Sequence record: DRR723986_1318
Reading direction: 5' to 3' (one strand)
Length of the DNA stretch: 64,000 nucleotides
A model generated the notes under the pieces. The model did no database searches, had not been told where the DNA came from, and worked only from the letters and a program-made list of their open reading frames with translations. Below, in pieces: positions 39,594-64,000 of this stretch. Made by a program: the position numbers and the translations under genes. Position 1 is the first letter of the stretch. Each line of letters opens with the position of its first letter.

Positions 39594-40037
39594 ATGGCGT
39601 CGGAGCCGGACATCTTAAGTCAAGCGTTTACGCTGGGCTATACCTATACCCGCTCAACAGGGCCCGTGGTGGGGCATTTCCTTAGCGCTTTGCGCGGTAA
39701 AAAAATCGTGGGCATTAAGGGGAGCGATGGTCGGGTCATTGTACCGCCTATGGAGTATGACCCTATCACTGCTGAAGCGTTGAATGAGTTTGTCGAGGTG
39801 GCGGAAACCGGCGTTGTCAAAAGTTGGTGCTGGGTAAGCGAGCCGCGTAAGAAGCACCTTCTGCAAAGGCCTTTTGCATGGATTCAAGTCCAGTTAGATG
39901 GAGCGGATGTTCCCATGTTGCATATGCTCTCAGCGCTTGATGCGTCGGCAGTAAGAACTGGAATGCGGGTAAAAGCGCGCTGGGCGGTAGAGCCGCGCGG
40001 ACATATTTCCGATATAGCTTTTTTCGAACCGGCGTGA
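39594..40037 (+). CDS. DUF35 OB-fold protein (resembles N-half of Rv3521)
   Basis: YTRSTGP, GSDGRVIVPPMEYDP, PFAWIQVQLDGAD, GMRVKARW; lacks zinc-ribbon cysteines. Confidence 0.85.
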   Translation: MASEPDILSQAFTLGYTYTRSTGPVVGHFLSALRGKKIVGIKGSDGRVIVPPMEYDPITAEALNEFVEVAETGVVKSWCWVSEPRKKHLLQRPFAWIQVQLDGADVPMLHMLSALDASAVRTGMRVKARWAVEPRGHISDIAFFEPA

Positions 40038-40047
40038 GGCTTGCCCA

Positions 40048-40563
40048 ATGACTACCAAGCTAGACGATACTGCCACACTGCCTCCTGTTACCTGCGTTGA
40101 AGAGCCGATTTACCTCGATTACAACTTCACAGCGGGGCATGCGGCCAGCCGTTTTCTGAAAGAAATTAAAAAAGGTCGGTTGGTGGGGCAGCGTTGCCCG
40201 TCGTGCCGCAATGTCTACGTTCCTCCTCGAGGCCTGTGCGCGGCATGTGGTGTGCCAATGGCGGAAGACGTCGAGTTATCTAATAAGGCGACAATTGAGT
40301 CGTTCACCGTGGTGCATATTCCACTACCGGGAAACCCGATCAAACCTCCCTTTGTTGTCGCAAACATCGTGCCTGATGGTGCGAACGTTTCCTTTATTCA
40401 CCTTGTCAGCGACTGCGATATCAATGATGTACGCATTGGTATGCGCATCGAGGCGCGGTGGCGTGATCGCTCGCAATGGAGTTACTCCATGGAAAATATT
40501 CAGTATTACGCGCCCATTGACGAGCCCGATATTCCGCGGGATTCGATAGGAAGACTGGACTGA
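40048..40563 (+). CDS. Zn-ribbon/OB-fold DUF35 protein (resembles C-half of Rv3521)
   Basis: CPSC...CAAC zinc ribbon, IKPPFVVA, VRIGMRIEARW, ENIQYYAP. Confidence 0.88.
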   Translation: MTTKLDDTATLPPVTCVEEPIYLDYNFTAGHAASRFLKEIKKGRLVGQRCPSCRNVYVPPRGLCAACGVPMAEDVELSNKATIESFTVVHIPLPGNPIKPPFVVANIVPDGANVSFIHLVSDCDINDVRIGMRIEARWRDRSQWSYSMENIQYYAPIDEPDIPRDSIGRLD

Positions 40564-41636
40564 TGGTAGCCAATAGTAAGCGCGAGGTCGCCGTCGTTGC
40601 CTTCGCCCAAAGTGCCATTCGCCGGGATGCTGGCAGCTGCAATGAAGTGGAGTTGATCGCTCCTGTTATTCGAGAGGCGCTCGATCAAGCCGGGTTAGAC
40701 AGTGTCCAGGATGTGGGTTTTACCTGCTCGGGGAGCTGTGATTATTTGCAGGGCGCCGCCTTTGCTTTTGTCTCGGGGCTCGATGCATTGGGCGCGGTGC
40801 CGCCGATAAAAGAATCGCACGTTGAAATGGACGGTGCCTGGGCACTCTATGAAGCCTGGCTGAAAATTCAGACTGGTGAAGTATCGTCGGCGCTGCTCTA
40901 CGGTTTTAGCAAATCGTCCCAGGGTGACTTGCCCTCAGTCCTGAGCCTTCAGCTCGACCCCTATTACCTCCAGCCACTTTGGCCGGACTCAGTAAGCCTG
41001 GCCGCATTGCAGGCGCGGGCCATGTTGGATAAGGGCGATGTGACCGAAGCGGATATGGCGCGCGTGGTCGCCGATTCTCGTCAGCGAGCCAAAACTAATG
41101 CGTATGCACAGTTGGCGGGTGATGTGGCAGTAGAAACATTGCTTGATGAGCCCGAGTTTGTTGCGCCCCTGCGTCGGCACGACTGCTGCCCGGTATCGGA
41201 CGGTGCTTCCGCGGTGATCATTTGTACCGTTGAAAAGGCAAAAGAATGGGGCAGGCCCTATGCGCTTATTCGTGGCATCGATCATCGAATTGAGACCCAC
41301 AATATCGGTGCCCGCGATCTGACCCGTTCGGTATCAACAGAAATCGCCGCCAAGAAGGCCGGGGCCTGCGAGGGGCCGATTGATATCGCGGAAATTTGTG
41401 CGCCTTTTAGTCATCAGCATATTTTATTGCAGCGCGCTTTGGGTCTCGATTCAAACACCACTGTGAACCCCTCGGGCGGCGTGTTAGCCGGTAACCCAAT
41501 GATGGCCGCAGGCCTAAGCCGCATTGGTGAAGTTGCCATGCGCATCATTCGTGGTGAGGCCCGACGAGGGCTCGCGCATGCCACCTCTGGGCCGTGCTTA
41601 CAACAAAACATGGTTGTCGTGTTGGAGGGGGCGTAA
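40563..41636 (+). CDS. ltp4: Thiolase-fold protein, Ltp4-like aldolase subunit
   Basis: CSGSCDYLQG, GAVPPIKESHVEMDGAWALYEAW, HATSGPCLQQN closely recall mycobacterial Ltp4. Confidence 0.8.
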   Translation: MVANSKREVAVVAFAQSAIRRDAGSCNEVELIAPVIREALDQAGLDSVQDVGFTCSGSCDYLQGAAFAFVSGLDALGAVPPIKESHVEMDGAWALYEAWLKIQTGEVSSALLYGFSKSSQGDLPSVLSLQLDPYYLQPLWPDSVSLAALQARAMLDKGDVTEADMARVVADSRQRAKTNAYAQLAGDVAVETLLDEPEFVAPLRRHDCCPVSDGASAVIICTVEKAKEWGRPYALIRGIDHRIETHNIGARDLTRSVSTEIAAKKAGACEGPIDIAEICAPFSHQHILLQRALGLDSNTTVNPSGGVLAGNPMMAAGLSRIGEVAMRIIRGEARRGLAHATSGPCLQQNMVVVLEGA

Positions 41637-42799
41637 TGGCGAATTGGGCGGCTGTGGTGGGCGTAGGGCAAACCAAATATCAGGCGACGCGTGGCGATGT
41701 ATCCATTGCCGGCTTGGTAAGAGAGGCTGCGCGGCGAGCCCTTGACGATGCAGGCTTAGAGTGGGGCGACATTGATGCCGTAATTATTGGCAAAGCCCCT
41801 GATATGTTCGAAGGCATGACCATGCCGGAGCTGTATCTGACTGATGCGCTGGGTTGCAATGGCAAGCCGATGTTGCGGGTACATACCGCCGGCTCTGTTG
41901 GCGGATCAACGGCCATTGTCGCGGCGTCTTATGTGCAAAGTGGTGTCTTTGATCGGGTATTGACGGTTGCCTACGAAAAGCAGTCGGAGTCGAATGCGAT
42001 GTGGGCGCTGTCAAACCCTCAGCCGTTTTCTCTGCACCTAAATGCCGGTGCTGGCGGTTATTTCGCGCCGATCATGCGCGAGTATATTCGCCGTTCAGGT
42101 GCACCTGACGACGTAGGTGTCCACGTTGCCGTGAAAGACCGCCTGAATGGCGCGCGCAATCCGCTGGCACACTTGCAATTACCCAACATCACAACAGAAG
42201 AAGTGAAAGCGAGCCCGTTGCTGTGGGAGCCGCTGCGCTTTCTGGAGAGCTGCCCATCTTCAGACGGTGCCTGCGCGATGGTGATATCTAGCGAGGCCTT
42301 GGTTGACGAGTCGCCCGGAAAGCCGGCGTGGATTCGCGGCACCGGCATGCGCAGCGAGCCGGCAATTTTTGCGGGCCGCGAAAACGTGGATACCCAGTCA
42401 GGGCGTGATTGCGCCAAAGATGTGTATGCACAGGCAGGCATCAGTAACCCACGCCGAGAGCTGGATTGCGCCGAAGTGTATGTTCCCTTCTCGTGGTACG
42501 AGCCCATGTGGCTTGAAAACCTCGGCTTCGCAGACCAGAACAAAGGCTGGGAGTTGACCATGAGTGGCGCGACATCGGCCATCGAAAACGGCGACATTCC
42601 GTGGAATCCCTCAGGGGGAGTGCTGTCGTCGAACCCCATCGGTGCGTCGGGAATGATTCGGTTTGCAGAGGCAGCCCAGCAGGTGCGCGGAACGGCAGGC
42701 GCCTATCAGGTCGATGGCGCAAAAACCGCATTGGGTCACGCCTACGGTGGCGGCGCTCAGTTTTATTCCATGTGGATTGTTGGCTCGGAAAGAGCCTGA
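41636..42799 (+). CDS. ltp3: Thiolase-fold protein, Ltp3-like aldolase subunit
   Basis: TAATG-coupled start MANWAA; GKAPDMFEG, RVHTAGSVGGST, EVYVPFSWYEP, LSSNPIGASG, GHAYGG. Confidence 0.82.
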   Translation: MANWAAVVGVGQTKYQATRGDVSIAGLVREAARRALDDAGLEWGDIDAVIIGKAPDMFEGMTMPELYLTDALGCNGKPMLRVHTAGSVGGSTAIVAASYVQSGVFDRVLTVAYEKQSESNAMWALSNPQPFSLHLNAGAGGYFAPIMREYIRRSGAPDDVGVHVAVKDRLNGARNPLAHLQLPNITTEEVKASPLLWEPLRFLESCPSSDGACAMVISSEALVDESPGKPAWIRGTGMRSEPAIFAGRENVDTQSGRDCAKDVYAQAGISNPRRELDCAEVYVPFSWYEPMWLENLGFADQNKGWELTMSGATSAIENGDIPWNPSGGVLSSNPIGASGMIRFAEAAQQVRGTAGAYQVDGAKTALGHAYGGGAQFYSMWIVGSERA

Positions 42800-42822
42800 G
42801 TACAGAGAGTTCGGAGAGTACT

Positions 42823-43644
42823 GTGGTAGAAGAATTGGATATCAGCACCGATAACTGCGTTATCGAAAAAGAGGGTAGCACATTGATTGTTACCCTTAAC
42901 CGGCCGGAAGCGAAGAACGCATTTAGTTTGGGAATGCTTCATGGCTTGTATCGCGCCTGGCGTCGCCTCGACGAGGATGGCCAGCTAATGTGCGCGATTC
43001 TCACGGCAAACGGAAACACCTTTTGCGCGGGTATGGATCTAAAGGCCGGCCCCGATGATACGCCGGGTCGCACAGCGGAAATAGAGGAAACCCAGCGCCT
43101 TGTGCCCAACATGCATTGGCAAGCTCTGCTCCGTGACAACCGGCCGAATAAGCCCATTATTTTAGCGGTTGAAGGTTATGCATTGGCGGGTGGGACCGAA
43201 ATTTTGGCGGGTACCGACATTCGTTTTGGTGCTGAAGGCTCGACCTATGGTGTTACCGAAGTCGCCCGAGGGTTGTATCCAATGGCCGGTGCAAGCATCC
43301 GCTTGCCACGACAAATACCGTATTGCCTGGCCGCTGAAATACTGATTACCGGGCGCCACGTAACCGCCACTGAGGCCCTTGAGTGGGGGCTGATCAACCG
43401 AGTGGTGCCTAACGGCCAGGCGCTTGCAGAAGCGAAGAAGTTGGCGGAGGAGATCGGTAAGACGGGGCCGATCGCGTTGAAAGCGATTATGAAATCGCTG
43501 CGCCAACTGCAGGCCGATGTTTCCGAAGAAGAGGCAATGCTGTCGTCCGATAAGCTGGCGGGGCCAGTGTTTGCGTCAGAGGACGCAAAGGAAGGCATGC
43601 GCGCATTCAAGGAAAAGCGCGCCGCCAAGTTTATGGGGCGATAG
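42823..43644 (+). CDS. echA19: Enoyl-CoA hydratase/isomerase, EchA19-like
   Basis: GTG start with ggagag RBS; FCAGMDLKA, AGGTEILAGTDIR, LPRQIPY, SEDAKEG. Confidence 0.8.
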   Translation: MVEELDISTDNCVIEKEGSTLIVTLNRPEAKNAFSLGMLHGLYRAWRRLDEDGQLMCAILTANGNTFCAGMDLKAGPDDTPGRTAEIEETQRLVPNMHWQALLRDNRPNKPIILAVEGYALAGGTEILAGTDIRFGAEGSTYGVTEVARGLYPMAGASIRLPRQIPYCLAAEILITGRHVTATEALEWGLINRVVPNGQALAEAKKLAEEIGKTGPIALKAIMKSLRQLQADVSEEEAMLSSDKLAGPVFASEDAKEGMRAFKEKRAAKFMGR

Positions 43645-43646: not shown

Positions 43647-44792
43647 ATGACTTGCGGGCCGCTGGTGGGGTTCAATGTTCTCGAGATGGCGGGTATTGGT
43701 CCCGCCCCCTTCGCTTGTATGTTGTTGTCGGACCTCGGTGCCGATGTCATCCGCATCGATAGGGTCGGCGCTGAAGCGCCGGCAAACAGTGGAGACTTCG
43801 TCGCGCGAGGACGCCGTTCCATCGCCGTTAATCTAAAAGACACCAAAGGTATTGAAGTCGTATTAAAGCTGGTGGAGAGCGCCGATGTCATCATCGAGGG
43901 GTTTCGCCCCGGTGTCATGGAAAAACTGGGTTTGGGCCCTGATGCCTGTGCTGCTCGAAACCCCGGCATCGTTTATGGGCGAATGACCGGATGGGGGCAG
44001 AGTGGCCCTCTGTCTTCGGCTGCCGGTCACGACATCAATTACATCGCGATTACCGGTGCGCTGGATGCAATAGGCAGCGAGCAATCCGGCCCAGTGCCAC
44101 CGCTAAACCTATTGGGCGATTACGCTGGTGGGGCGATGTATCTGGTCGTTGGCATATTGTCGGCATTGTTGGAGCGGGGCCACTCGGAAAAGGGGCAGGT
44201 GGTCGATGCGGCGATATGCGATGGCACAATTTCATTGACCACCGCGATCCATGCCTTTAAAGCGATGGCTATGTGGCAGGATGGGCGGTGCGACAACTTA
44301 CTCGACGGCGGCGCTCACTTTTATGCCAACTATCTCTGCGCCGATGGCAAGTACATTAGCCTGGGCGCAATAGAGCCAAAGTTTTACAGCCTGCTTGCTG
44401 AAAAACTTGAGATTGACCTTGGTGAACCGGGTGCTCATTTCGACCGGTCGCAATGGCCAAAGTACAAAGCAAAGATCGCTCAGCGCATTGCAATGAAATC
44501 CCGAGACGAGTGGTGCGCCTTATTAGAGGGAAGCGATGTCTGTTTCGCCCCTGTTTTGGATTGGAGCGAAGCGCCTGATCATCCGCACAATCAAGCGCGG
44601 GGTAATTTCATAGAGCTTGATGGCCACTTACAGCCCGCACCTGCCCCCAAGTTGTCGCGCACGCCTGGCAGGGTTCAGTCTTCGCCGACAGGTGTTGCAC
44701 GTGACACCAGAGATATCTTGTTGTCGTTGGGTTACGGCGATGGGGACATCGACGAACTACTAACCAGCAATACCGTCTCTTCAATACCGTAA
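43647..44792 (+). CDS. mcr: CaiB/BaiF family protein, alpha-methylacyl-CoA racemase-like
   Basis: GIGPAPF, EGFRPGVMEKLG, AGHDINY, PPLNLLGDYAGG, NLLDGGA. Confidence 0.85.
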   Translation: MTCGPLVGFNVLEMAGIGPAPFACMLLSDLGADVIRIDRVGAEAPANSGDFVARGRRSIAVNLKDTKGIEVVLKLVESADVIIEGFRPGVMEKLGLGPDACAARNPGIVYGRMTGWGQSGPLSSAAGHDINYIAITGALDAIGSEQSGPVPPLNLLGDYAGGAMYLVVGILSALLERGHSEKGQVVDAAICDGTISLTTAIHAFKAMAMWQDGRCDNLLDGGAHFYANYLCADGKYISLGAIEPKFYSLLAEKLEIDLGEPGAHFDRSQWPKYKAKIAQRIAMKSRDEWCALLEGSDVCFAPVLDWSEAPDHPHNQARGNFIELDGHLQPAPAPKLSRTPGRVQSSPTGVARDTRDILLSLGYGDGDIDELLTSNTVSSIP

Positions 44793-45005: not shown

Positions 45006-45785
45006 GTGATTGATATGGATGGCAAAGTTGCGCTGATTAGCGGCGGTGCCCGGGGGCAAGGGGCAGCGGAGGCGCGTCTATTTGCCAGTCTCGGCGCAAA
45101 GGTGGTGATCGGTGATCTGCTGTGTGAAGAGGGTGAAGAAGTCGCCCGTTCAATCGGCCCCCAGGCGGCCTTTTGCCGACTAGATGTTACGTCTGAGCAG
45201 GATTGGCAGGCTGCTGTGGCGCTGACTCTGGAGAAGTTCGGCAAGCTGAATGTGCTGGTTAATAACGCGGGGATCTCGGGCGGAAAATTCCTTGAAGATG
45301 AAACCGAAGAAGGCTTCATGAAAATGATCCAGATTAATCAGCTGGGCGTTTTTCTTGGAATGAAATCGGTTGTCGCGGCAATGCGAGCGGCCGGTGGAGG
45401 CTCCATTGTGAATATCTCGTCGACGGCGGGCTTTCGCGGGGTGACTAAATGTATTGCTTATTCAGCGTCTAAGTGGGCCGTTCGAGGCATGACAAAAACG
45501 GCGGCTATAGAACTGGGTCGCGATGGCATTCGGGTCAACTCGGTGCACCCCGGTGTGATCAACACCGCGATGGTGAAGTGGGACGAAATACCCGATAAGC
45601 AGCGCGATATGGTGGCGGGTATGTTGCCGCTTGCTCGCATCGGCGAGGTGTCTGAAGTTGCCCAGATGGTGACGTTTCTCGCTTCGGATGCCAGTTCATA
45701 TAGTACTGGTGGTGAATTCATTATCGATGGTGGCTCCACAGCGGGCACGCCTTTTTTCCAACCTAAGCGAAAAGCCAAGGCGTAA
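45006..45785 (+). CDS. SDR, 3-alpha(20-beta)-hydroxysteroid dehydrogenase-like
   Basis: SGGARGQG, NNAG, YSASKWAVRGMTK, NSVHPG. Confidence 0.85.
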   Translation: MIDMDGKVALISGGARGQGAAEARLFASLGAKVVIGDLLCEEGEEVARSIGPQAAFCRLDVTSEQDWQAAVALTLEKFGKLNVLVNNAGISGGKFLEDETEEGFMKMIQINQLGVFLGMKSVVAAMRAAGGGSIVNISSTAGFRGVTKCIAYSASKWAVRGMTKTAAIELGRDGIRVNSVHPGVINTAMVKWDEIPDKQRDMVAGMLPLARIGEVSEVAQMVTFLASDASSYSTGGEFIIDGGSTAGTPFFQPKRKAKA

Positions 45786-45835: not shown

Positions 45836-47026
45836 ATGGAAAATCAGGAAACATTTAGGCGCGAAGTTGCCAACTGGCTAGAGGAAAATTGCCCACCGGC
45901 GATGCGAGAGCCCGCCCGACCGGAAGACCTCTACAACGGTGGCAGTAAAGGGGAGTTCCCCTGTGAGGACGCGCGTCTTTGGTTTGAGCGTATGTTGGCC
46001 AGGGGCTGGACCGCGCCGGATTGGCCCGAGGAATACGGTGGTGCGGGTCTCAATAAAGACGAGAGCAAAATTCTCAAGCAGGAGATGAAGCGCCTCGGCT
46101 GCCGCCCGGCGCTGGCGGCCGGTCAGGGGCTTGCCATGCTGGGCCCGGCATTGCTCGAGTATGGTACTGAGCAACAAAAACGCGAACACCTACCGAAAAT
46201 AGCCCGTGGTGAAGTGCGTTGGTGTCAGGGCTACAGCGAGCCTGGGGCAGGTTCTGATCTTGCAAATATTCAATGCAAGGCCGAGGACAAGGGTGACCAC
46301 TTTCTCGTAAATGGCACTAAAATTTGGACGTCAAACGCCGATGCCGCTGATTGGATATTTTGTCTTGTACGAACTGACTCAGAAGCCCCAAAGCATGAGG
46401 GAATCAGCTTTGTACTGATGGATATGGCGCAGCAGGGAGTGAGCGTTAGTCCGATCGAGCTAATATCGGGTGACTCCGATTTTTGTCAAACCTTTTTCGA
46501 TAACGCGCGAGTTGAAAAGCGCAATATGTTGGGTGAGCAGAATAAGGGCTGGGGTGTTGCCAAGCGATTGTTGCAGCACGAGCGGACGCTGATGTCCGAG
46601 CTGTCAGAATTGGCCGTTGGCCCCAGGTATTCGCCCTCTGAAGTTGCTCGCCGGTATTTGCCCATGGCCGACGGTAAATTGCTAGACGGTAACTTACGTC
46701 AGCAACTCACGCAGTACGATATGGATGCCATGGTTATGGGCCTGGCTAAGCAAAAGGCGTTTGAGGAAGGTCGGCAGGGTACGCTTGATCCCAATACCAC
46801 TTCTTTCTTTAAGTACTACGCAACGGAATTAGACCAGAGGTGTAGTGAGTTAAAACTGGCCTTGATGGGCACCCAGGGGTTGGGTTGGGAAGGCGAAGGC
46901 TTCGATAGCGATGAACTTATGGAAGCGAGGCATTGGGCGCATTCGAAAATTTTGACGATCGCCGGTGGCAGTTCCGAAATTCAATTGAACGTGGTCGCGA
47001 AGCGCGTATTACAGCTGCCGGACTGA
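45836..47026 (+). CDS. Acyl-CoA dehydrogenase (catalytic subunit of a probable alpha2beta2 pair)
   Basis: WCQGYSEPGAGSDLA, NGTKIWTS, LQHER, TIAGGSSEIQ. Confidence 0.93.
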   Translation: MENQETFRREVANWLEENCPPAMREPARPEDLYNGGSKGEFPCEDARLWFERMLARGWTAPDWPEEYGGAGLNKDESKILKQEMKRLGCRPALAAGQGLAMLGPALLEYGTEQQKREHLPKIARGEVRWCQGYSEPGAGSDLANIQCKAEDKGDHFLVNGTKIWTSNADAADWIFCLVRTDSEAPKHEGISFVLMDMAQQGVSVSPIELISGDSDFCQTFFDNARVEKRNMLGEQNKGWGVAKRLLQHERTLMSELSELAVGPRYSPSEVARRYLPMADGKLLDGNLRQQLTQYDMDAMVMGLAKQKAFEEGRQGTLDPNTTSFFKYYATELDQRCSELKLALMGTQGLGWEGEGFDSDELMEARHWAHSKILTIAGGSSEIQLNVVAKRVLQLPD

Positions 47027-47099: not shown

Positions 47100-48239
47100 A
47101 TGACGATGGTATTAAGTGAAGAGCAGATATTACTGAAAGACACCGCACGCGAATTTATCCAGTCGCAATGTCCGGTTGGAGAATTTCGCAAGCTCCGTGA
47201 TGCTCCATCAGGGACGGGGTATTCAGCAGCCCATTGGCGGACAATGGTCGAGCTGGGTTGGCCAGGTATTTTACTGCCCGAAGACTGTGGTGGTATGGAT
47301 TTCGGCTATGTCGGCTTAGGTGGAATTATGGAGGAGGCCGGTCGAACCCTGTTGGCCTCGCCGCTTTTTGCCACAGTGATTCTGGGTGCGCAGTGCGTGC
47401 AAATCGGTGGCAGCAGTCTTCAGCGTGAATCTGTGTTGCCTAAGGTGGTGGAGGGGCAGTGCACACTGGCCCTTGCCCTCGATGAGGGGAGTCGCCATGC
47501 CCCCCTGGAAACTGCCATGTCGGCGCGCACTGACGGTGACGGATTCGTGCTGAACGGAAGAAAGGCGTTTGTTCTGGATGGCGGTAGCGCAGATCAGTTA
47601 ATCGTTGTGGCGCGCAGTGCCGGCAGCCCGGGTGAGGAGTACGGCCTGACGCTCTTTCTCGTTGACGCTAACTCAGCCGGTATGTCACGCCGCGAGCTGA
47701 CCCTGATGGACGAACGCGGCGCGGCGCAGATCGACTTTAGTAATGTACGTGTTGAGCGGAGTGCTGTCCTCGGCGAGGTTGATCAGGGCTGGAAGGTGTT
47801 GTCACCGGTGCTGGACGCCGCTTGCATACTCCTGGCCGCTGAAATGCTCGGTGGCATTTCGGAATGCTTTGATCGCACTGTGGCCTACCTGAAAGATCGC
47901 GAGCAGTTCGGTGTGAAAATAGGTAGCTTTCAAGCGCTAAAACACCGTGCTGCCAAGTTGTTCGCCGAGGTCGAGTTATGTCGCGCCGCAGTGCGGGCGG
48001 GGCTCGTCGCCCTAGATCGCGGGTCTGACCAGGTGCCGCTGTTGGCCAGCCTCGCAAAAAGCCGCCTTAATGATATTGCCAAACTGGCGACGAATGAGGC
48101 GGTGCAGATGCACGGCGGCATCGGCGTGACGGATGAACTCGATATCGGCTTGTTCTTAAAACGGGCCCGAGTCACCGCACAGACCCTCGGTGATAGTAGT
48201 TACCACAGTGACCGCTTCGCTCGGTTAAGTGGCTACTAG
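47100..48239 (+). CDS. Acyl-CoA dehydrogenase (partner subunit)
   Basis: ELGWPG, REQFGVKIGSFQALKH, QMHGGIG; lacks the SEPxAGSD and GGxxE motifs. Confidence 0.92.
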   Translation: MTMVLSEEQILLKDTAREFIQSQCPVGEFRKLRDAPSGTGYSAAHWRTMVELGWPGILLPEDCGGMDFGYVGLGGIMEEAGRTLLASPLFATVILGAQCVQIGGSSLQRESVLPKVVEGQCTLALALDEGSRHAPLETAMSARTDGDGFVLNGRKAFVLDGGSADQLIVVARSAGSPGEEYGLTLFLVDANSAGMSRRELTLMDERGAAQIDFSNVRVERSAVLGEVDQGWKVLSPVLDAACILLAAEMLGGISECFDRTVAYLKDREQFGVKIGSFQALKHRAAKLFAEVELCRAAVRAGLVALDRGSDQVPLLASLAKSRLNDIAKLATNEAVQMHGGIGVTDELDIGLFLKRARVTAQTLGDSSYHSDRFARLSGY

Positions 48240-56624: not shown

Positions 56625-58178
56625 TTACACTTGCCGCTGTCGACCCTCCCAGTAGGGATCTCTCAGGCGGCGTTTAAAGAGCTTTCCATTTGGGTCACGG
56701 GGCAGGGCATCGAGATAGTCAATGCTGCGTGGCAGCTTCATTTTTGCTATCCGTGACGCGAGGAAGTCCATAATTTCCTGGGTGGTGGCGTCATCGCTGC
56801 CGACGCCTTCGGCAGGTTGTACAACCGCTTTAATTTCTTCCCCCCACTCGTCATTCGGCACACCAAAGACGGCGCAGTCGGCTACTTTCTCATGCAGGAT
56901 GAGTACGTTTTCGATCTCTGCTGGATAAATGTTGGCGCCGCCGGAAATGATCATGTCGATCTTGCGGTCGCACAGAAAGAGATAGCCTTCTTCATTGAGA
57001 TAGCCGATGTCACCAACAGTGAAGTAATTGCCAATACGGTTCTCCGCCGTATTTTTTGCATTGCCTTTGTATTCAAAGTTGCCGCGCTCGGTCAGGCGCA
57101 TGTACACCGTGCCTTGTTCACCCACTGGGAGTTCATTGGCATCGTCGTCAAAGATCTTGATATCTGCTTCAGGCCAGGCCTTACCGACGGTGCCGGGATA
57201 CTTCAGCCACTCTTCGGGTGACACGATGGTGCCGCCGCCTTCGGTTGCGGCGTAGTATTCGTAAATGGATAAGCCCCACCACTCGATCATGGCGCGTTTC
57301 ACATCAGGTGGGCAGGGCGCTGCCGCATGCACCATGCGACGGGTACTGGAGCAGTCGTATTTCTCGCGCGTTTGCTCAGGGAGCTTCAACAGCCGGATAA
57401 ATTGTGTTGGCACCATATGTGAGGTGGTGACGCGATACTTCTCGATCAAGCGCAGCATCTCTTCCGGTTCCCACTTGTCCATCAAGACCACGGCGTGGCC
57501 TAAATGCAGAGAGCCGCTGGCCCAGGCCATTACCGCGGTGTGATAAAGCGGCGAGCCAGTGATGTTGACATTATTGTCCTCCGGCAGCGTGCCCAGCATT
57601 AATAGAATTCCTGAGCTCATTTGTGCTCCCACTTCCGGTGACAAGCCGGTGAGTGGTCGTCGCACGCCCTTGGGTTTGCCAGTGGTGCCCGAGGTGTAGT
57701 TCATTACGGCGCCAGCGCTACGGTTGTCTGGCGGCGTATGAGGTTGCTCGGCAATAATGTCGGAATAGGGGCGCCAGCCCGGAATGTCACCAATAGCGAA
57801 AGCGCGCTGGGTATCGAAGTTCGCCTCGGCCACCGCTTGTGTTGCAGCGTCTTTGATGCGCTCGTGGCTGATAAATACCTTCGCGCCGCTATCTTCCAGA
57901 ATGTAGGCAACCTCAGAACCGGCCAGGTGCCAGTTGATGGGCACCATGTAAAAGCCGGCTTGAAGTATCGCCAGGTTGATAGCGATCATTTCTTTGCAGT
58001 TGGGCATGATTACCGCAACAACATCGCCAGGTTCCATACCTAGCTGGCGTAAGCCGTGTACCAGTTGGTTACACTCTTTTAAAAGTGCCCCACGGGTAAT
58101 TTCATCGCCATTTGGTGCGACCAATGCGAGTGGAGCGGGGTCCTTTTCTGCATAGTGCCAAAAGCCGATATTTGTCAT
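56625..58178 (-). CDS. Acyl-CoA synthetase (AMP-forming)
   Basis: YTSGTTGKPKG, PLYHTA, YYAATE, GDIG, DMIISGG, PNGKL. Confidence 0.95.
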   Translation of the reverse strand: MTNIGFWHYAEKDPAPLALVAPNGDEITRGALLKECNQLVHGLRQLGMEPGDVVAVIMPNCKEMIAINLAILQAGFYMVPINWHLAGSEVAYILEDSGAKVFISHERIKDAATQAVAEANFDTQRAFAIGDIPGWRPYSDIIAEQPHTPPDNRSAGAVMNYTSGTTGKPKGVRRPLTGLSPEVGAQMSSGILLMLGTLPEDNNVNITGSPLYHTAVMAWASGSLHLGHAVVLMDKWEPEEMLRLIEKYRVTTSHMVPTQFIRLLKLPEQTREKYDCSSTRRMVHAAAPCPPDVKRAMIEWWGLSIYEYYAATEGGGTIVSPEEWLKYPGTVGKAWPEADIKIFDDDANELPVGEQGTVYMRLTERGNFEYKGNAKNTAENRIGNYFTVGDIGYLNEEGYLFLCDRKIDMIISGGANIYPAEIENVLILHEKVADCAVFGVPNDEWGEEIKAVVQPAEGVGSDDATTQEIMDFLASRIAKMKLPRSIDYLDALPRDPNGKLFKRRLRDPYWEGRQRQV

Positions 58179-58456: not shown

Positions 58457-59095
58457 TTAACGCAATAGGTGCGATTCCATCATGCTCAGATAAATGTCGG
58501 CAGCCTGGCGCAATGAGGTGCCTTCCACGCTTAATTGGTAGTTAGCCATGCCCGACATACTGCCAAAGAACATCATTACCAGGTTGTCGACTTTCCATTC
58601 GGGATTGATCTCGCCATTCTTTATGGCGTCTTCAAATATGCGGGCCTGTAAGGCGCGCATTTCATTTTCCCGGTGGCTGAATATTTCCTTGAGTGTTTCG
58701 TGGCGCTGAGTTTCCAGTGGAATGGATGACAGGAATCCACTTTTTAATGGAGACTGTTCGTGCAGGCTAACCATGGCCTCTACCAGGTTGCGTATGCGTT
58801 CCTTAAGACGGGTCGATGATTCAATTGCCTGTTTAAAGCGCGGGTAGATGTCTTGATAAATATGGTCGACGACGGCGATGTATAGCGCGGGTTTGGAGTC
58901 AAAGTACTGATAGATCGCTGCGCTGGTGATATTTGCCCCAACCGCAATATCCTTGAATTTTGTGCTGGCGTAGCCATGGGATGTGAAACAGGCCAGTGCG
59001 CTGTCGAGAATTCTGGCAATCGTATCTTCGCGCTTGCTACCGACCGGTCGGCCGATAGTTTTATCCGGGGCTGTATGGCTGCTTTTTCTTTTCAC
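58457..59095 (-). CDS. TetR/AcrR family transcriptional regulator
   Basis: N-terminal HTH: GYASTKFKDIA...AAIYQYFDSK. Confidence 0.92.
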   Translation of the reverse strand: MKRKSSHTAPDKTIGRPVGSKREDTIARILDSALACFTSHGYASTKFKDIAVGANITSAAIYQYFDSKPALYIAVVDHIYQDIYPRFKQAIESSTRLKERIRNLVEAMVSLHEQSPLKSGFLSSIPLETQRHETLKEIFSHRENEMRALQARIFEDAIKNGEINPEWKVDNLVMMFFGSMSGMANYQLSVEGTSLRQAADIYLSMMESHLLR

Positions 59096-59162: not shown

Positions 59163-60284
59163 TCAGTCCGCCGTAAGATTGTTGATGTACTCGAGGGCTT
59201 CCACGTATTCATTGAGTAGACGCATAATCAAATTCCGAGACGACTCAACATGGGTGACCTGGCCGATAACCTGTCCCGCCGGATTGAATGCCACCTTCTG
59301 GCAATCGCCTTTGTCGGCATATTGATTTGTACGGATCATGGCGTTGTAAGACACCAGGCCCTGCAGTGGCATAGGCAGTGGGTCCGGCGTATCGGACGAG
59401 CCCCATGCTTCGGTCCAGTCGTTCTTGATCATGCGGCAGGGTTTTCCCGTCCACGATTTAGAGCGCACGGTATCCTCGGAGCTCGCATCAAAATAGGATT
59501 GCTTTTGCGCAGGCTGGGCATGGGCCTCTTCAACGGCCAGCCATAGCGAGCCTGTCCACACGCCCTGAACGCCGGTTGCCATCGCGGAGAGCATTTGTCG
59601 GCCATTGCCGATACCGCCGGCAGCCAGCACTGGAACATCTCCCGCTGCGTCCACGGCCTGTGGCCAAAAGACGATCGAACCGACATCGCCGGTATGTCCA
59701 CCGCCTTCACCGCCCTGTGCAACAATAAAGTCCAGGCCGGCATCGCGATGGGCCTCTACTTGTTTAATGCGGCCGCACAGTGCGCCGACAAGGCGACCGC
59801 TGTCCTGAATGCGTTTAACCAGGTCTGCTGGTGGGGTGCCAAGAGCGTTTGCTACCAGGCGACAGTTTGGGCGATGTAGCGCCTGCTCAACCAACTGTGA
59901 ACCAATGGCCTCATTCCAGCTTAGCAGCCTCGCTTCTTGCTTCTCTGGCAGCTCGGGTACGCCGTGCTCGGCTAGCACCTTGTCGGCAAACTCGTAGTGT
60001 TCCTGGGGCACCATGGCTCGCAGTTGCTGTTCGAGCTTTTCCGGGTCCATTTCGCCTTGGCCTTCATACTTGGCCGGAATAACAATATCGAGACCGTAAG
60101 GTTTGTCGCCGATATGTTCATCAATCCAGTCAAGTTCAATTTTTAACATCTCGGGGGAGAGGCCGACTGCGCCAAATACACCAATGCCGCCAGCTTTGGA
60201 GACTTCTACTACCACATCCCGGCAGTGAGTGAAGGCAAAGATCGGCAGGTCTATCCCCAGCTTTTTACATAGTTCGGTTTGCAC
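59163..60284 (-). CDS. Nitronate monooxygenase/FabK-like FMN enzyme (Rv1894c/Rv1533-like)
   Basis: PIFAFTHCRDVV, AQGGEGGGH, LAAGGIG, GVWTGS. Confidence 0.88.
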   Translation of the reverse strand: MQTELCKKLGIDLPIFAFTHCRDVVVEVSKAGGIGVFGAVGLSPEMLKIELDWIDEHIGDKPYGLDIVIPAKYEGQGEMDPEKLEQQLRAMVPQEHYEFADKVLAEHGVPELPEKQEARLLSWNEAIGSQLVEQALHRPNCRLVANALGTPPADLVKRIQDSGRLVGALCGRIKQVEAHRDAGLDFIVAQGGEGGGHTGDVGSIVFWPQAVDAAGDVPVLAAGGIGNGRQMLSAMATGVQGVWTGSLWLAVEEAHAQPAQKQSYFDASSEDTVRSKSWTGKPCRMIKNDWTEAWGSSDTPDPLPMPLQGLVSYNAMIRTNQYADKGDCQKVAFNPAGQVIGQVTHVESSRNLIMRLLNEYVEALEYINNLTAD

Positions 60285-60482
60285 AATATGGTCCTCTGAA
60301 TCGATTTTCGCAGGCTATGTTAGAGCGCTGTATCTCCCATCCACAGGGCATTTTCCGCCAACTTGGCTAGACGTTTGCGGGTGGAGTGAAATGTTAGGAA
60401 CTATTGAGAGGTTATTACATGTTCAGTGCTGGCACGGTTGACTAAGCTGGAATTCGAACATTTACGAGGTGGGGAGTTGGCA

Positions 60483-61568
60483 ATGCGAGCAGTCGTCTGT
60501 AGAGGAATAGAAGAGATCGCTGTAGAAGAGGTAACCCTGGACCCTCCCAAAGCGGGGGAGGTAAAGGTGCGTATGGTGGCGACGGGCGTGTGTCATTCCG
60601 ATCTCTCGATAATCAATGGCGGATTCCCGGTTGCGATGCCCATTGTCCTCGGTCACGAGGGTGCCGGCGTGGTGGAAGAAGTGGGCGAAGGCGTTACGCA
60701 TCTGCAAGCCGGTGATCACGTTGTCATGTCCTTTGTGCCTGCTTGCGGTGAATGCAGCCATTGCCACAATCATCGACCATCGTTGTGTGACACCGGATTG
60801 CGCATGGGCAAAATGCTCGACGGCACCACCCGCGTGCACGCTGGCGACGAGGATATCGATGTTATGCAGTATCTCGGTTGCATGGCGGAGTATGCCGTTA
60901 TTCCTCAGGCAAGTGCAATTAAGATCGATAAGTCTATCCCGCTGGATAAAGCCGCTTTGGTCGGTTGTGGGGTAATGACCGGTGTTGGCGCCGCGATTAA
61001 TACCGCGAAGATTGTGCCGGGTTCGAGTGTTGCTGTGTTCGGCTGTGGCGGTGTTGGTCTGTCCGTGATTCAGGGAGCACGTCTCGCTGGCGCAGAAAAA
61101 ATCATCGCGGTGGATCTCTCAGAGAGCAAACTCGAAATGGCGAAAAAGTTCGGCGCGACTCACGGTGTCTGCAGTGCCAGCGACGACCCCGTGGCCACCA
61201 TTCAAGCGCTAACAGGCGGTGGTGCCGATTATGCTTTCGAAGCTGTCGGTATCGCCAAATTGATGGAGCAAGCGAATGCCTGTGTAAGACGCGGTGGTAT
61301 GGCCGTTATTGTTGGTGTTGGATCGCTGACTGAGAATGTCTCACTAAATGCACTAATGCTTTCCATGGGCGCAAAAACGCTGAAGGGCTGCTTTTACGGT
61401 GATGCCAACCCTCCTGTCGATTTCCCCCGGCTGATCAATTTATACACCGCTGGCAAGCTGAATCTAGACGACATGGTGACCAAGCGGTACACCATCGATG
61501 AAGCGCCTCAGGCTTTCGAAGATATGAAAAGTGGGGTAAATGCGCGCGGCGTGATTACCTTTCAATAA
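60483..61568 (+). CDS. Zn-dependent alcohol dehydrogenase
   Basis: Start reassigned to MRAVV; GVCHSD, GHEGAG, CGECSHC, GCGGVG. Confidence 0.95.
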   Translation: MRAVVCRGIEEIAVEEVTLDPPKAGEVKVRMVATGVCHSDLSIINGGFPVAMPIVLGHEGAGVVEEVGEGVTHLQAGDHVVMSFVPACGECSHCHNHRPSLCDTGLRMGKMLDGTTRVHAGDEDIDVMQYLGCMAEYAVIPQASAIKIDKSIPLDKAALVGCGVMTGVGAAINTAKIVPGSSVAVFGCGGVGLSVIQGARLAGAEKIIAVDLSESKLEMAKKFGATHGVCSASDDPVATIQALTGGGADYAFEAVGIAKLMEQANACVRRGGMAVIVGVGSLTENVSLNALMLSMGAKTLKGCFYGDANPPVDFPRLINLYTAGKLNLDDMVTKRYTIDEAPQAFEDMKSGVNARGVITFQ

Positions 61569-61611
61569 AAAAAATTAAGAAATATAAAAATACGACAGTG
61601 AGAGAAAGATT

Positions 61612-64000
61612 ATGAACCTTTGCATGCGAATCGGACAGGCTGGCCGCATATTGATGGGAACCGGAATGGCCATGATAGCGGGCGACACTTTGGCGCAGGC
61701 TGGCGCCTTAGAAGAGGTGATAGTGACAGCGCGTCACCGCTCGGAAAATATGCAGGAAACGCCCATTGCAGTGAGTGCAGTAAGCGCCGAAAGCATGCGT
61801 GAGCAGGGCATCAAAAATACCAAAGACCTGACCCGCAGTATTCCTAGCTTGCAAATAGGAAAGGCGGGCTCGGTACAAATATACATTCGCGGTATCGGCG
61901 AGCGAACGGGGTTTTCCCGTGTTGATCCAAGTGTCGGGGTGTATTTGGATGGCGTTTATATCCCACGGGTAGACGGCCAGCTGTTCGATGCCGTCGAGCT
62001 GGGCGGCATTCAGGTATTGCGCGGACCCCAGGGTACGCTATTTGGTAAGAACACCACCGGCGGAGCGATGTTGTTGACGCTCGCCAAGCCCAGTGACGAA
62101 GATGAAACCATTGTTGAACTTGGTGCGGCCTCCCACCGGCGCGTGCAAGGCAAGGTGGTCAATGGCTTTACCTTGTCGGAAAACCTTCACGCCCGCCTAG
62201 CCTTGTCGGCCATTACCGACGATGGCTACCTGAAAGATGTTAACGGCCAGAAGTTTTCCACGAATAATCGTCAGTCGCTTATTGGCCAGCTTCGCTGGAC
62301 ACCGGCTGATAATCTTCTGAACGACACTTTCTTGTACTTCGGCAATATCAATGAAACCCGGCCTGGCCGGCACTGTAATTTGTCTGATGATAACGGCCTC
62401 TTTATTCGCGGCCTGTATGTCATGTTCCCCGGCGACACAGACCCAAGTAACCCCACCGCCTGGAATGAAAATTGTTTGGAAAATTCGATTGACCGTTTGG
62501 GGCGCGACACGGTGTCGCTGGGTGATGCGCCCAATGAATATCGCTTCCGTTCTGTGATGCTCGGGAACACTCTGGAGTTAGAGCTCGACTCTGGAGATGT
62601 GCTCAAGTTTATTCTCGGTAGCCAATACTCGGTAGAGGAGCCTCACCAGGTCAGTGATTCCGACGCGGGGCCAGCGGAGTTCCTTGAAGCATTCACTATT
62701 GATGATAGTGAGCGTTACGTAAACAGCCTCGAGTTACAGCTAACAGGCACCATGTTTGACGAGCGCATGAGTTACTCGACTGGGCTTTACGCGATGGTCG
62801 AGTCTCTCAACGACAGCTTTGTTAATTTCACTAGCCTGGTTGGCCTTGATCTCCAAACACTCGGCGCAATGGGGCTGGGGCAGCGTCCATCACAGCCCAC
62901 GCCTATGGGAACGGTGCCCGTTGTCGGTGTGCTGGCGGGCCCGCTTGCTGAGTCTGTCTTTGAATTAGATAACCAGACCTATGGCGCTTATTTTCAAGGT
63001 GTTTTTGATGTAACAGAGAACATCCAGTGGACATTTGGTGGCCGCTATACCGTTGAAACCCGCTCTACTGACCAGGTATTCACCGGCTCAGACATAGATG
63101 CCATCAGTGCGCGTATTGCGCTTTCACCGCAATTTGGCCCAGCCGTTGCGCCGGGCTTCCATCCGTTTTTGGGGTCGTGGGCGCAAGATCCTGTCAGCAT
63201 CGCCGCGTCATTGTTCACTGATGAGGACGGCGATGGAATCATCGACTTCCCAATGGATCGGGACAATGCCGTAGTGCAAAAAGAGAAAGTCACCTTCCGG
63301 GAGTTCTCGCCGATGACGTCACTGTCCTATGTGTTCGACGGAGAATGGATGGAAGATTCTGTCGTCGACTCTCTGATGGCATACGCGACATGGAGTAACG
63401 GATTTAAGTCGGGCTTCTTCGAGCCTAAAGGCGCCGACGGCTTGAAATTTATCGAGCCAGAGGAAGTGGAGAATATTGAGTTGGGTATTAAGTCTGACTG
63501 GTTTGGTCGCCGCTTGCGCAGCAACTTGTCTATTTACAATATGGATTACAAGCAGATTCAGTTGCTGCAGATTTCCACCGATAGAAATAACAACCTTCAA
63601 GTCACCATGGACAATGCCGGTGCGGCGACGATCAAAGGCGTGGAGCTGGAGATGACCTGGCTGCCGACACCGCGACTGATGATGCAGTTTAGCTACAGTC
63701 GTAATGACTATAGCTACGACGAGTTCACCGACCTTGAATTAATTCCCCTGGCAATTAATGGCACCAGGGTGCCTGTCGACCGCTCCGACGAAAGTTTTGC
63801 AATTGTGCCCGAGCAGACGGCGTACCTCGGTGTTCAGTACGAGTTCAAGACGGACTACGGCCGCATCGTGCCGAGGGTTGATGTTAGCTACAAAGATAAA
63901 ATTTATTACGGCATAGACCGTAAGTCCTGGGAGGCCTACAAGCGTGACGAGAGTCGCGGAGGCGTCCCATCTAGTACCGTAGCCAATGCCATGGTTACTT
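61612..64000 (+). CDS. TonB-dependent receptor, 3' end outside window (absent from the ORF track)
   Basis: Read by hand: MNLCMRIG...LEEVIVTARHRSENMQETPIAVSA; QVLRGPQGTLFGKNTTGG; AYATWSNGFKSG; frame appears open to window end. Confidence 0.93.
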   Translation, partial: MNLCMRIGQAGRILMGTGMAMIAGDTLAQAGALEEVIVTARHRSENMQETPIAVSAVSAESMREQGIKNTKDLTRSIPSLQIGKAGSVQIYIRGIGERTGFSRVDPSVGVYLDGVYIPRVDGQLFDAVELGGIQVLRGPQGTLFGKNTTGGAMLLTLAKPSDEDETIVELGAASHRRVQGKVVNGFTLSENLHARLALSAITDDGYLKDVNGQKFSTNNRQSLIGQLRWTPADNLLNDTFLYFGNINETRPGRHCNLSDDNGLFIRGLYVMFPGDTDPSNPTAWNENCLENSIDRLGRDTVSLGDAPNEYRFRSVMLGNTLELELDSGDVLKFILGSQYSVEEPHQVSDSDAGPAEFLEAFTIDDSERYVNSLELQLTGTMFDERMSYSTGLYAMVESLNDSFVNFTSLVGLDLQTLGAMGLGQRPSQPTPMGTVPVVGVLAGPLAESVFELDNQTYGAYFQGVFDVTENIQWTFGGRYTVETRSTDQVFTGSDIDAISARIALSPQFGPAVAPGFHPFLGSWAQDPVSIAASLFTDEDGDGIIDFPMDRDNAVVQKEKVTFREFSPMTSLSYVFDGEWMEDSVVDSLMAYATWSNGFKSGFFEPKGADGLKFIEPEEVENIELGIKSDWFGRRLRSNLSIYNMDYKQIQLLQISTDRNNNLQVTMDNAGAATIKGVELEMTWLPTPRLMMQFSYSRNDYSYDEFTDLELIPLAINGTRVPVDRSDESFAIVPEQTAYLGVQYEFKTDYGRIVPRVDVSYKDKIYYGIDRKSWEAYKRDESRGGVPSSTVANAMVT

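Follow-up and report, generated by a model that had tools for sequence, protein, structure and literature searches.

A putative strain-variable gene island for sterol side-chain degradation, with an Ltp3/Ltp4-type core and a kinase/lyase-like pair, in a Gram-negative bacterium

A gene cluster at positions 39594-64000 of a 64,000-nucleotide stretch of DNA from sequence record DRR723986_1318 (the whole stretch is referred to below as the window) reads, with a probability that we put at roughly 60%, as a self-contained module that activates the alkyl side chain of sterols and shortens it. The cluster is most likely a strain-variable genomic island, since it is absent at the same site from the nearest reference genome (G001, 3.6 Mb); G001 carries a native cluster of its own, to which the island is paralogous, as a divergent second version. 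Judged by nucleotide identity, the host appears to be a near-conspecific of G001, and is probably a marine gammaproteobacterium of the Spongiibacteraceae; G001 serves as the proxy for all genome-level statements on the host. The nearest characterised relatives of the encoded enzymes come from sterol catabolism: EchA19, the racemase, CYP125, the acyl-CoA dehydrogenase of PDB entry 4x28, the Rv3520c-family luciferase-like (LLM) enzyme and the Ltp3/Ltp4-type pair. Sterols are a large, poorly degradable marine carbon pool, and those of algae and sponges are mostly alkylated at C24. A near-complete sterol side-chain route had been proposed for this DNA in an earlier note made from the letters alone (the original prediction); the coherent acyl-CoA module with sterol-catabolic relatives holds up, but the note had missed both a kinase/lyase pair and the island status of the cluster.

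The 22 open reading frames (ORFs) of the cluster are all intact and give full-length matches to the families that had been named for them. Gene identities were assigned from the ORF listing, Pfam and NCBIfam scans and PDB sequence comparison, and scores are given in bits against the NCBI cut-off. At the head of the plus-strand genes stand DUF35a (OB fold only, 147 amino acids, 39594-40037; PF01796, 38 bits) and DUF35b (zinc ribbon plus OB fold, 171 amino acids, 40048-40563; PF12172 and PF01796), followed by an Ltp4-type thiolase-like protein that lacks the nucleophile cysteine (40563-41636; NF005924, 508 > 419) and an Ltp3-type thiolase-like protein, the candidate catalytic aldolase subunit (41636-42799; NF006180, 650 > 514). 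The ORFs and Pfam agree with these models on the predicted order of DUF35 pair, ltp4 and ltp3. NF006180 and NF005924 were presumably built around Rv3523 and Rv3522, and Rhodococcus genetics (Wilbrink 2012) reportedly linked Ltp3/Ltp4 to the degradation of C24-branched sterols. One-nucleotide overlaps join DUF35b to Ltp4 (TGATG) and Ltp4 to Ltp3 (TAATG), which indicates that the core genes are translationally coupled.

When the core proteins are placed in the motif frame used in the consulted part of PMC12329534, the position that aligns with the thiolase nucleophile cysteine is Gly in Ltp3 and Glu in Ltp4, and the SCPx-type thiolase of the same cluster keeps its cysteines (NNNC and HDCF). At the motif that reads YDHF in Ltp2 and YDCY in Sal, Ltp3 has YVPF and Ltp4 CAPF. 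In Ltp2 and Sal, both characterised steroid aldolases, the Tyr at the start of this motif is described as the catalytic base (PMC12329534). Across 70 sequences from four phyla, Y282-V-P-F of Ltp3 is invariant, as are E84, H86, E88 and D90 of the Ltp4 loop ESHVEMD, with a mean column identity of 78% for Ltp3 and 68% for Ltp4. From these residues we infer that Ltp3/Ltp4 is a non-thiolytic, retro-aldol enzyme in which Ltp3 is the likely catalytic subunit. The conserved four-gene synteny, together with solved DUF35 complexes, suggests that Ltp3 and Ltp4 would form a heterotetramer with both DUF35 proteins.

To follow the core beyond this host, we scanned for Ltp4 using one genome per species, which gave 592 relatives among 600 candidate stretches, of which the best 80 were kept. 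The DUF35a-DUF35b-Ltp4-Ltp3 core is preserved, wherever the locus is long enough, across 81 loci of Pseudomonadota, Actinomycetota, Myxococcota and Spirochaetota, with DUF35a lying 5' of Ltp4 in nearly all of them. Two separate DUF35 genes, as seen here, are normal: about 64 of the 81 loci have them, 14 have a fusion and 3 do not cover the pair. Among the best 80 of the 592, the closest relatives (65-73% identity) are from Spongiibacter and metagenome-assembled genomes (MAGs) of Spongiibacteraceae, Endozoicomonas numazuensis, Halieaceae and Cellvibrionales, and the next (54-63%) from Actinomycetota (mostly Acidimicrobiia and Microthrixaceae), Myxococcota and two Spirochaetota bins. Two types of locus can be told apart. 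Gammaproteobacterial loci add only the hydratase and the racemase, joined in G001 by a FadD19-type ligase; many loci of Actinomycetota and Myxococcota have a FadD4-like ligase 5' of the core, SDR1 3' of it, and LLM, NMO and alcohol dehydrogenase (ADH) genes nearby. The island combines both accessory sets. It was thus fair to call the cluster 'actinobacterial-type', because the accessory set of CoA ligase, SDR, LLM, NMO and ADH adjoins DUF35-Ltp4-Ltp3 in Actinomycetota MAGs.

In a quick maximum-likelihood tree of concatenated Ltp4 and Ltp3 (70 rows, covering only the 69 nearest loci; 12 of the 81 loci were dropped with one gene incomplete), the other 12 gammaproteobacterial rows form a clade (SH-aLRT 98) that has the island copy as its sister (100 for all 13 together). 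Four Actinomycetota rows (Frankiales, Blastococcus and two MAGs) come next, with a support of 97 and on a very short branch. The Ltp copies of G001 and of a Spongiibacteraceae MAG (L033) share 91% identity, and grouping the island copy with these two is not rejected by an approximately unbiased (AU) test (p = 0.158), so that an old paralogue, a transfer and fast divergence are not told apart as the origin of the island copy.

The core is followed on the plus strand by enzymes of acyl-CoA metabolism. The crotonase-family hydratase (42823-43644, with GTG at 42823 as the probable start) has EchA19 entries 6wyi and 4f47 as its best solved matches (254 and 243 bits; next 189) and passes NF005864 (PRK07799; 319 > 316). 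Next to it lies a family-III CoA-transferase-fold protein (CoA_transf_3, 43647-44792), which by PDB comparison is an alpha-methylacyl-CoA racemase, in line with the racemase originally proposed: the racemase entries 8rmw, 1x74 (379 bits) and 9i2t give 379-380 bits, Far 326 and true CoA-transferases at most 122. SDR1 (45006-45785; Pfam adh_short) had been called an HSD-type SDR, a name not sustained by the family scans, in which it is a generic SDR; its homologues (51-57% identity) lie directly 3' of Ltp3 in Actinomycetota loci. The expected pair of acyl-CoA dehydrogenases is present, intact and in the expected order, with a large-subunit type at 45836-47026 (PimC-like, 251 bits; best PDB match 4x28_A, 163 bits) and a small-subunit type at 47100-48239 (PimD-like, 234 bits; partial IpdE2 match). 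We take 4x28 to be ChsE4-ChsE5 of Mycobacterium tuberculosis. The LLM oxidoreductase of F420 class (48324-49340) belongs, as predicted, to the Rv3520c family (TIGR03559, 420 > 335), and G001 has genes for F420 biosynthesis: a fused cofGH (1140 > 1018), cofD and cofE, which is unusual for a gammaproteobacterium. These cof genes are found at G001:C4:311902-316804 (L126 11902-16804), between groups of steroid ring-cleavage genes, and fit F420-class LLMs.

The plus-strand series closes with a cytochrome P450 (49464-50714). In the PDB comparison it scores 354 bits to CYP125MRCA, 218-240 to natural CYP125 enzymes and 184 to CYP142, so that among characterised P450s it appears closest to CYP125 and is not CYP142-like, unlike the P450 of the mycobacterial locus. 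P450 nomenclature requires at least 40% identity to a named member for placement in a family. Immediately behind the P450 gene, a hairpin with a 7-bp stem (6 GC pairs) and a T-run at 50733-50751 separates the plus-strand operon from the convergent minus-strand operon. It is the top-ranked site of the terminator scan and the only convincing one (30 terminator-like sites against 22.6 expected); a promoter scan returned 9 sites against 12.4 expected, i.e. no signal. The tight gene spacing points to operon organisation.

The first two genes beyond the hairpin are those that had been overlooked, and both lie on the minus strand. The first (50759-51889, 376 amino acids) encodes a 25-phosphosteroid-lyase-like protein of the Rv3169 family (NF053593, 360 > 150), which matches PDB entries 9fzn, 9g2i and 9g4c, named '25-phosphosteroid lyase (25-PSL)', with E = 2.7e-46 over residues 2-355 against 5-350. 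The second (51915-53000, 361 amino acids; PF01636) encodes an APH-family kinase-like protein, a candidate side-chain hydroxysteroid kinase, whose best solved matches are 9fsg (144 bits), named only 'aminoglycoside phosphotransferase-like protein', and 3ats/3att (141). The adjacency of the two genes recurs on contig C9 of G001 (46% identity for the kinase, 62% for the lyase) and in an Actinomycetota MAG (L046), 8 kb from its Ltp cluster. To our knowledge, dehydration of tertiary side-chain alcohols by a kinase and a lyase has so far been known only from the anoxic Sterolibacterium pathway. In S. denitrificans, according to the parts of PMC8449060 and PMC11061730 used here, 25-HSK, a phosphotransferase of ~40 kDa, transfers phosphate to the tertiary alcohol at C25 of the sterol side chain, after which a lyase, at that time not identified, eliminates phosphate to leave a delta-24 alkene, amounting to an ATP-dependent dehydration. 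The literature searched yielded no description of a 25-PSL gene or structure, only earlier work that uses the term, and the Rv3168/Rv3169 papers among the matches listed have titles and abstract beginnings without any tie to sterols.

The remaining genes of the convergent operon are those that had been named: a type II (HSD10-type) 3-hydroxyacyl-CoA dehydrogenase (53060-53833; 241-261 bits to PDB type II entries), the SCPx-type thiolase (53873-55060; NF006102, 653 > 436), an aldehyde dehydrogenase (ALDH, 55125-56582; PF00171, 535 bits) and an acyl-CoA synthetase (56625-58178). The last is PRK12406/FadD4-like and not FadD19-type, with scores that stay under the cut-offs of both models (514 < 701 and 504 < 850); its homologues (52-63% identity) lie directly 5' of DUF35a in Actinomycetota and Myxococcota loci. 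Further along, the expected TetR-family regulator (58457-59095, minus strand; PF00440), FMN enzyme, ADH and TonB receptor are recovered by Pfam. The FMN enzyme is an NMO-family oxidoreductase (59163-60284, minus strand; PF03060, 130 bits) with homologues of 42-47% identity near Ltp clusters in Actinomycetota; the zinc ADH (60426-61568, plus strand) has the Pfam domains ADH_N and ADH_zinc_N and scores 407 < 440 with TIGR03989; and the TonB-dependent receptor (61612-64000, plus strand; plug and barrel domains) is cut by the window end, its full length being 850 amino acids in metagenome contig L129. The regulator was also considered as KstR and rejected, with 30 bits to the KstR model against a cut-off of 280.

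Taken together, these genes suggest the following route. Sterols would be taken up through the TonB-dependent receptor and hydroxylated at the terminal C26 by the CYP125-like P450, with further oxidation to the acid by the zinc ADH and ALDH or by the P450 alone. The FadD4-like ligase would provide CoA activation, the racemase 25R/25S inversion, the two-subunit acyl-CoA dehydrogenase dehydrogenation and the EchA19-like hydratase hydration. Chains unbranched at C24 would then be oxidised by the HSD10-type dehydrogenase and thiolysed by the SCPx-type thiolase. In C24-alkylated chains the beta-hydroxy carbon is tertiary and not oxidisable, and hence the C24-C25 bond would be cut by retro-aldol cleavage in the DUF35a/DUF35b-Ltp4-Ltp3 complex. 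The APH-like kinase and the 25-PSL homologue would spend ATP on dehydrating a tertiary alcohol of the side chain, and the F420-class LLM, SDR1 and the NMO enzyme may be responsible for redox tailoring. That retro-aldol cleavage to a 24-ketone, followed by oxidative processing, takes the place of the carboxylase route is purely speculative. In its widest form the proposal is tentative, and we think it possible though rather doubtful: an aerobic gammaproteobacterium would couple an O2-dependent CYP125 with ATP-driven kinase/lyase dehydration and, with a heteromeric DUF35a/b-Ltp4-Ltp3 aldolase and an F420-class LLM, achieve a carboxylase-independent handling of C24-alkylated or 24-/25-hydroxylated algal and sponge sterols, the strain-variable island enabling some members of a cosmopolitan population to use a wider range of sterols.

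The wider steroid equipment of the lineage is seen in G001, which has 7 KshA_C matches and HsaF/G-type aldolase and dehydrogenase genes. Its native cluster runs from a fused DUF35 through Ltp4, Ltp3, a FadD19-type ligase (691 > 543), an EchA19-like hydratase and a racemase to, further on, a P450, a TetR regulator and a KstD-like flavoprotein. This cluster adjoins the KstD-like gene on the same contig as HsaA/C/D-like genes. The island proteins share 72% (Ltp4), 83% (Ltp3), 69% (hydratase) and 54% (racemase) identity with their native counterparts; further homologues are found on other contigs (LLM 69%, P450 53%, kinase 46%, lyase 62%, receptor 43%). Three full-length acyl-CoA carboxyltransferases are encoded in G001, none of them assignable. 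Of the other genes that had been suggested for a genome-wide search, G001 has kshA-type and kstD-like ones and one for an HsaC-like protein (275 < 450).

At the level of the order we surveyed 201 genomes, drawn evenly across the order and covering 58 families; the overlaps given here are hand counts from tables, and the genomes are related and not independent, so that the figures are descriptive only. An Ltp4-type protein passes the family cut-off in 38 of the 201 genomes (four of the five from the same genus), three of which have two copies. Members of the Rv3169/25-PSL-like family pass in 37 genomes, where copy numbers reach 7 (G196 7, G060 6, G224 6); these numbers suggest a paralogue family with several substrates. 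Both families occur together in 29 genomes, Ltp4 alone in 9 and the lyase alone in 8. Strong KshA_C matches (E <= 1e-50), present in 37 of the 201 genomes, fall in 24 of the 38 Ltp4-positive genomes compared with 13 of the 163 Ltp4-negative ones. The co-occurrence figures tie the Ltp4-type and lyase families to steroid degraders.

Several results weigh against a sterol side-chain module. The hydratase stays below the cut-off of the EchA19 equivalog model NF051848 (308.5 < 400), so that the earlier naming is good for 'EchA19-like' but not for a shown equivalog. The margin of the P450 among natural enzymes is small, its 218-240 bits to CYP125 lying close to the 206-208 bits to CYP124, a methyl-branched-lipid omega-hydroxylase. 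In G001, the two HsaA-like proteins (378 and 369 bits; cut-off 450), the HsaC-like protein and the HsaD-like protein (255 < 400) all score below the equivalog cut-offs, and the host's ring genes, native cluster, F420 synthesis and carboxylase are deduced from that genome only. Finally, 14 of the 38 Ltp4-positive genomes have no strong KshA_C match, which implies that the module can exist without ring degradation; in these genomes it may serve side chains only, or other lipids.

The CYP124 scores and the genomes without a strong KshA_C match bear on a different substrate class. The island might degrade non-steroid methyl-branched isoprenoids, such as phytol-derived phytanate and pristanate, isoprenoid alkanes, or squalene or carotenoid fragments, with the P450 acting as an omega-hydroxylase, the racemase, acyl-CoA dehydrogenase, hydratase, HSD10-type dehydrogenase and SCPx thiolase carrying out 2-methyl-branched beta-oxidation, and Ltp3/Ltp4 cutting 3-hydroxy-3-methylacyl-CoA where a 3-methyl branch blocks the chain. 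Such a tertiary beta-hydroxyacyl-CoA poses the same chemistry as C24-alkyl sterols, and racemase, SCPx thiolase and HSD10-type dehydrogenase together make up the peroxisomal set for pristanic acid as well as for bile-acid precursors. Moreover, Pfam scans of the 49 submitted ORFs find no ring-cleavage, acyl-CoA carboxylase or mobility gene in the window, just as had been stated. We nevertheless consider this alternative unlikely, as six genes have their best relatives in steroid pathways (EchA19, CYP125, 25-PSL, the Rv3520c family, the Ltp3/4-type models and 4x28), strong KshA_C matches are concentrated in Ltp4-positive genomes, and the native Ltp cluster of G001 sits by the KstD-like flavoprotein on the contig with the HsaA/C/D-like genes.

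Sterol side chains thus remain our preferred substrate, and the next question is which of them. As summarised in the part of PMC6678751 consulted, the accepted scheme for C24-branched sterols proceeds through Cyp125, FadD19, C24-C25 desaturation, C28 carboxylation, hydration and a heteromeric Ltp3-Ltp4 aldol-lyase. Two further points count against debranching by the island: this published scheme needs the C28 carboxylation, and no carboxylase is found among the island ORFs scanned, continuation included; and in Mycobacterium neoaurum, as reported in the portion of PMC10398937 used here, strains with single deletions of ltp3 or ltp4 still converted phytosterols to 4-HBC. Each of the two genes being individually dispensable there, the module could instead handle C27 or oxygenated side chains (cholesterol, 24-/25-hydroxysterols, cholestanoates) without C24 debranching, the kinase/lyase pair re-routing tertiary alcohols and Ltp3/Ltp4 having some other role. 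In keeping with this, the solved relative of the lyase acts, by the name of 9fzn, on 25-phospho-steroids, 25-HSK takes the 25-hydroxy derivatives of both cholesterol and sitosterol (PMC8449060, in the part seen), and the lineage already has a native Ltp3/4 cluster. However, the sole genetic evidence ties Ltp3/Ltp4 to C24-branched sterols (summarised in the same part of PMC6678751), and the strong constraint on both proteins across phyla (mean column identities as given above) implies a specific catalytic role beside the beta-oxidation enzymes. We therefore regard a module confined to C27 or oxygenated chains as distinctly unlikely, and keep to one that may also act on C24-alkylated sterols.

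We next consider the island itself. Nucleotide identity between the window and G001 is 97-98% over 3903-31188 and 97% over 35566-39206, and the match ends at 39206, after an alpha/beta-hydrolase gene. The left junction of the island is the non-coding stretch 39207-39593 behind this conserved gene. Against 39.2-64 kb of the window, G001 offers nothing better than scattered short single-gene pieces at 65-83% nucleotide identity, and no contiguous copy turned up in a search of 61 relatives (28 from the same genus, a further 9 from the same family and another 24 from the same order), which gave only single-gene matches of 64-81% over at most ~1.5 kb. One candidate for the same island, contig C328 of G039, has Ltp4 8 kb from a lyase homologue and was rejected as distant (Ltp4 50%, Ltp3 58%, lyase 30%). 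At the island site G001 instead encodes a UvrD-like helicase, unassigned proteins of 660 and 276 amino acids, a Dcm cytosine methylase and a likewise unassigned 465-amino-acid protein (L111 8849-16854 = G001:C2:82849-90854). These genes look like a defence island, which would make the site a hotspot for variable DNA.

Two metagenome contigs (L128 and L129) carry the distal 12.4 kb at 98.8-98.9% nucleotide identity, also differ from each other, and run up to 10 kb past the window end, completing the receptor. Beyond the receptor (L129 12624-22386) they encode an amidohydrolase_2 protein, TetR and AraC regulators, a SnoaL-like protein, an 855-amino-acid double CoA-transferase-III protein, an MFS transporter, a crotonase, a MaoC hydratase and a CoA ligase. 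As this continuation in L129 has no match in G001 at E <= 1e-30, the island measures at least 35 kb and its right border is not reached. The proximal 10 kb was found (0.60-0.70 of sampled words) in 17 marine or estuarine runs from 12 coded studies, one of which may be the source of the window. That the nearest genome and the 61 relatives lack a contiguous block, and that the window may derive from a metagenome bin, could suggest a decaying or assembly-chimeric region without function. This is highly improbable: every one of the 22 ORFs is intact and matches its family over the full length; the hydrolase gene and the island are bridged by contigs of three independent runs (X3, X5 and X2), so that the left junction is not an assembly artefact; and both the two mutually different distal contigs and the recurrence across runs speak against it. 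The scans of the window detected no tRNA gene and no integrase or transposase.

Within the left junction, 39349-39429 (81 nucleotides, 5' of DUF35a) is replaced by the same 9 nucleotides in four of the four metagenome runs compared, an indel polymorphism at the place where the promoter of the island operon would lie. Further to the left, 31189-35565 holds the gene of a 1175-amino-acid FG-GAP repeat protein without a G001 match, where G001 has a 2.7-kb segment, and the first 3.9 kb of the window, with sugar nucleotide and glycosyltransferase genes, show 70% identity to G001 or no match. The block 11415-18692, shared with G001 at 97-98%, encodes a TonB receptor, TauE, an SDR, a 3-beta-HSD/epimerase-family protein, an SBF (bile acid:Na+ symporter family) transporter, an FMO/Baeyer-Villiger-like monooxygenase and an AraC regulator, and could be another steroid- or lipid-related unit. 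A second P450 (399 amino acids) and a ChrR-type cupin protein are encoded at 29039-30711, and also in G001 (L111 41-1713). Two small BLUF blue-light sensor genes lie at 19606-20025 and 31268-31717. Also 5' of the island, 22744-28870 encodes an IMPa-like metalloprotease (1010 amino acids), an isochorismatase-family protein and a neutral/alkaline ceramidase (800 amino acids), which are lipid- or host-surface-directed enzymes.

In the portions of the literature consulted, Bergstrand 2016 found nothing in Proteobacteria that pointed to cholesterol catabolism or to orthologues of Cyp125/142 (PMC4810484), Holert 2018 describes cholesterol-degrading Spongiibacteraceae (BD1-7) and Halieaceae isolated from sponges (PMC5790920), and a 2024 SAR86 paper finds fadE26/27 and cyp125 homologues in marine Gammaproteobacteria (PMC11582366). 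Among the matches listed, ltp3/ltp4 are treated in actinobacterial work and one review only and are not described in Proteobacteria, although supplementary tables, which were outside the search, may list orthologues; nor have the side-chain genes of cholesterol-growing Cellvibrionales-type bacteria been worked out in the literature searched. The view that the system is characterised only in Actinobacteria is thus right for the biochemistry, but it fails for distribution, because Ltp4-type proteins occur in 38 of the 201 order genomes and growth on cholesterol is published (in the part of PMC5790920 seen). The ability to degrade sterol side chains is already known in this bacterial group; the kinase/lyase pair is what is unexpected there.

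The island offers a compact, testable gene set for the sterol side-chain step in a Gram-negative bacterium, and a natural comparison of island-plus with island-minus strains inside one species. It further gives a lead that anaerobes may not be alone in dehydrating side-chain alcohols with a kinase and a lyase; members of the lyase family accompany Ltp4-type proteins in 29 of 38 genomes. If the kinase/lyase and CYP125 assignments are true, this would be the first function for a widespread, often multi-copy APH-like/Rv3169-family pair of aerobic steroid degraders; if the specificity for alkylated sterols is true, the island would supply non-actinobacterial side-chain aldolases and hydroxylases for steroid biotechnology.

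Compared with characterised steroid aldolases, the Ltp3/Ltp4 core resembles Ltp2-ChsH2(DUF35) and Sal-Shy(DUF35) in having a thiolase-like fold without the nucleophile cysteine, a DUF35 partner and, in Ltp3, the first Tyr of the motif. It differs in that two thiolase-like subunits and two DUF35 proteins replace a homodimer with one DUF35 type, and in that the third motif position of Ltp3 is Pro, not His or Cys; the sequence relation is weak (6ok1 against Ltp3 72 bits, against Ltp4 31 bits). With Sterolibacterium denitrificans 25-HSK/25-PSL the island can be compared through its gene for a kinase-like protein of the phosphotransferase family (~40 kDa), which adjoins the gene of a full-length 25-PSL homologue that is moderately related to the solved 25-PSL (161 bits over ~350 aligned residues). 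In S. denitrificans, by contrast, the part of PMC8449060 consulted places no lyase gene near the kinase gene. The island pair is clustered with an O2-dependent P450, and no molybdenum C25/C26 dehydrogenase is found among the ORFs scanned.

The native gammaproteobacterial clusters (G001 contig C4, Halieaceae, Endozoicomonas numazuensis and Cellvibrionales MAGs) share the DUF35-Ltp4-Ltp3 core (Ltp4 66-73%, Ltp3 77-83% identity to the island's), the EchA19-like hydratase (62-69%) and the racemase (54-58%), but have a FadD19-type ligase (PRK07798, the 691 > 543 given above) and lack SDR1, the acyl-CoA dehydrogenase pair, LLM, CYP125, kinase/lyase, SCPx, HSD10, ALDH, NMO and ADH that flank the core in the island. 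Homologues of these accessory genes are scattered in G001 over contigs C1, C3, C5 and C9, at 43-69% amino acid identity. Clusters in MAGs of Actinomycetota and Myxococcota (for example L054 Frankiales, L056, L062 Blastococcus, L084, L091 and L097) are, conversely, alike in the FadD4-like ligase (52-63%), SDR1 (51-57%), LLM (49-58%), NMO (42-47%), ADH (42-50%) and SCPx (52-54%), and L046 also has the APH and Rv3169 pair; they differ in a rearranged gene order, a more distant Ltp4 (54-63%) and the lack of a TonB receptor. Being uncharacterised, these MAG loci add no functional evidence.

The mycobacterial locus, which we take to run in the order fadD19, echA19, cyp142, Rv3520c, Rv3521 (DUF35), ltp4, ltp3, is among the closest known systems. 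In common with it and its Rhodococcus counterpart, the island brings together the DUF35-ltp4-ltp3 order, an EchA19-like hydratase, an Rv3520c-family LLM and a sterol-type P450 in one cluster, and its Ltp3 and Ltp4 pass the NCBI subfamily models. It departs from them in its DUF35 partner, split into two ORFs, in a P450 that is CYP125-like and not CYP142-like, and in a ligase that is FadD4/PRK12406-like and not FadD19-type; it adds a racemase, an acyl-CoA dehydrogenase pair, SCPx, HSD10, ALDH, the kinase/lyase pair and a TonB receptor, and its host is Gram-negative.

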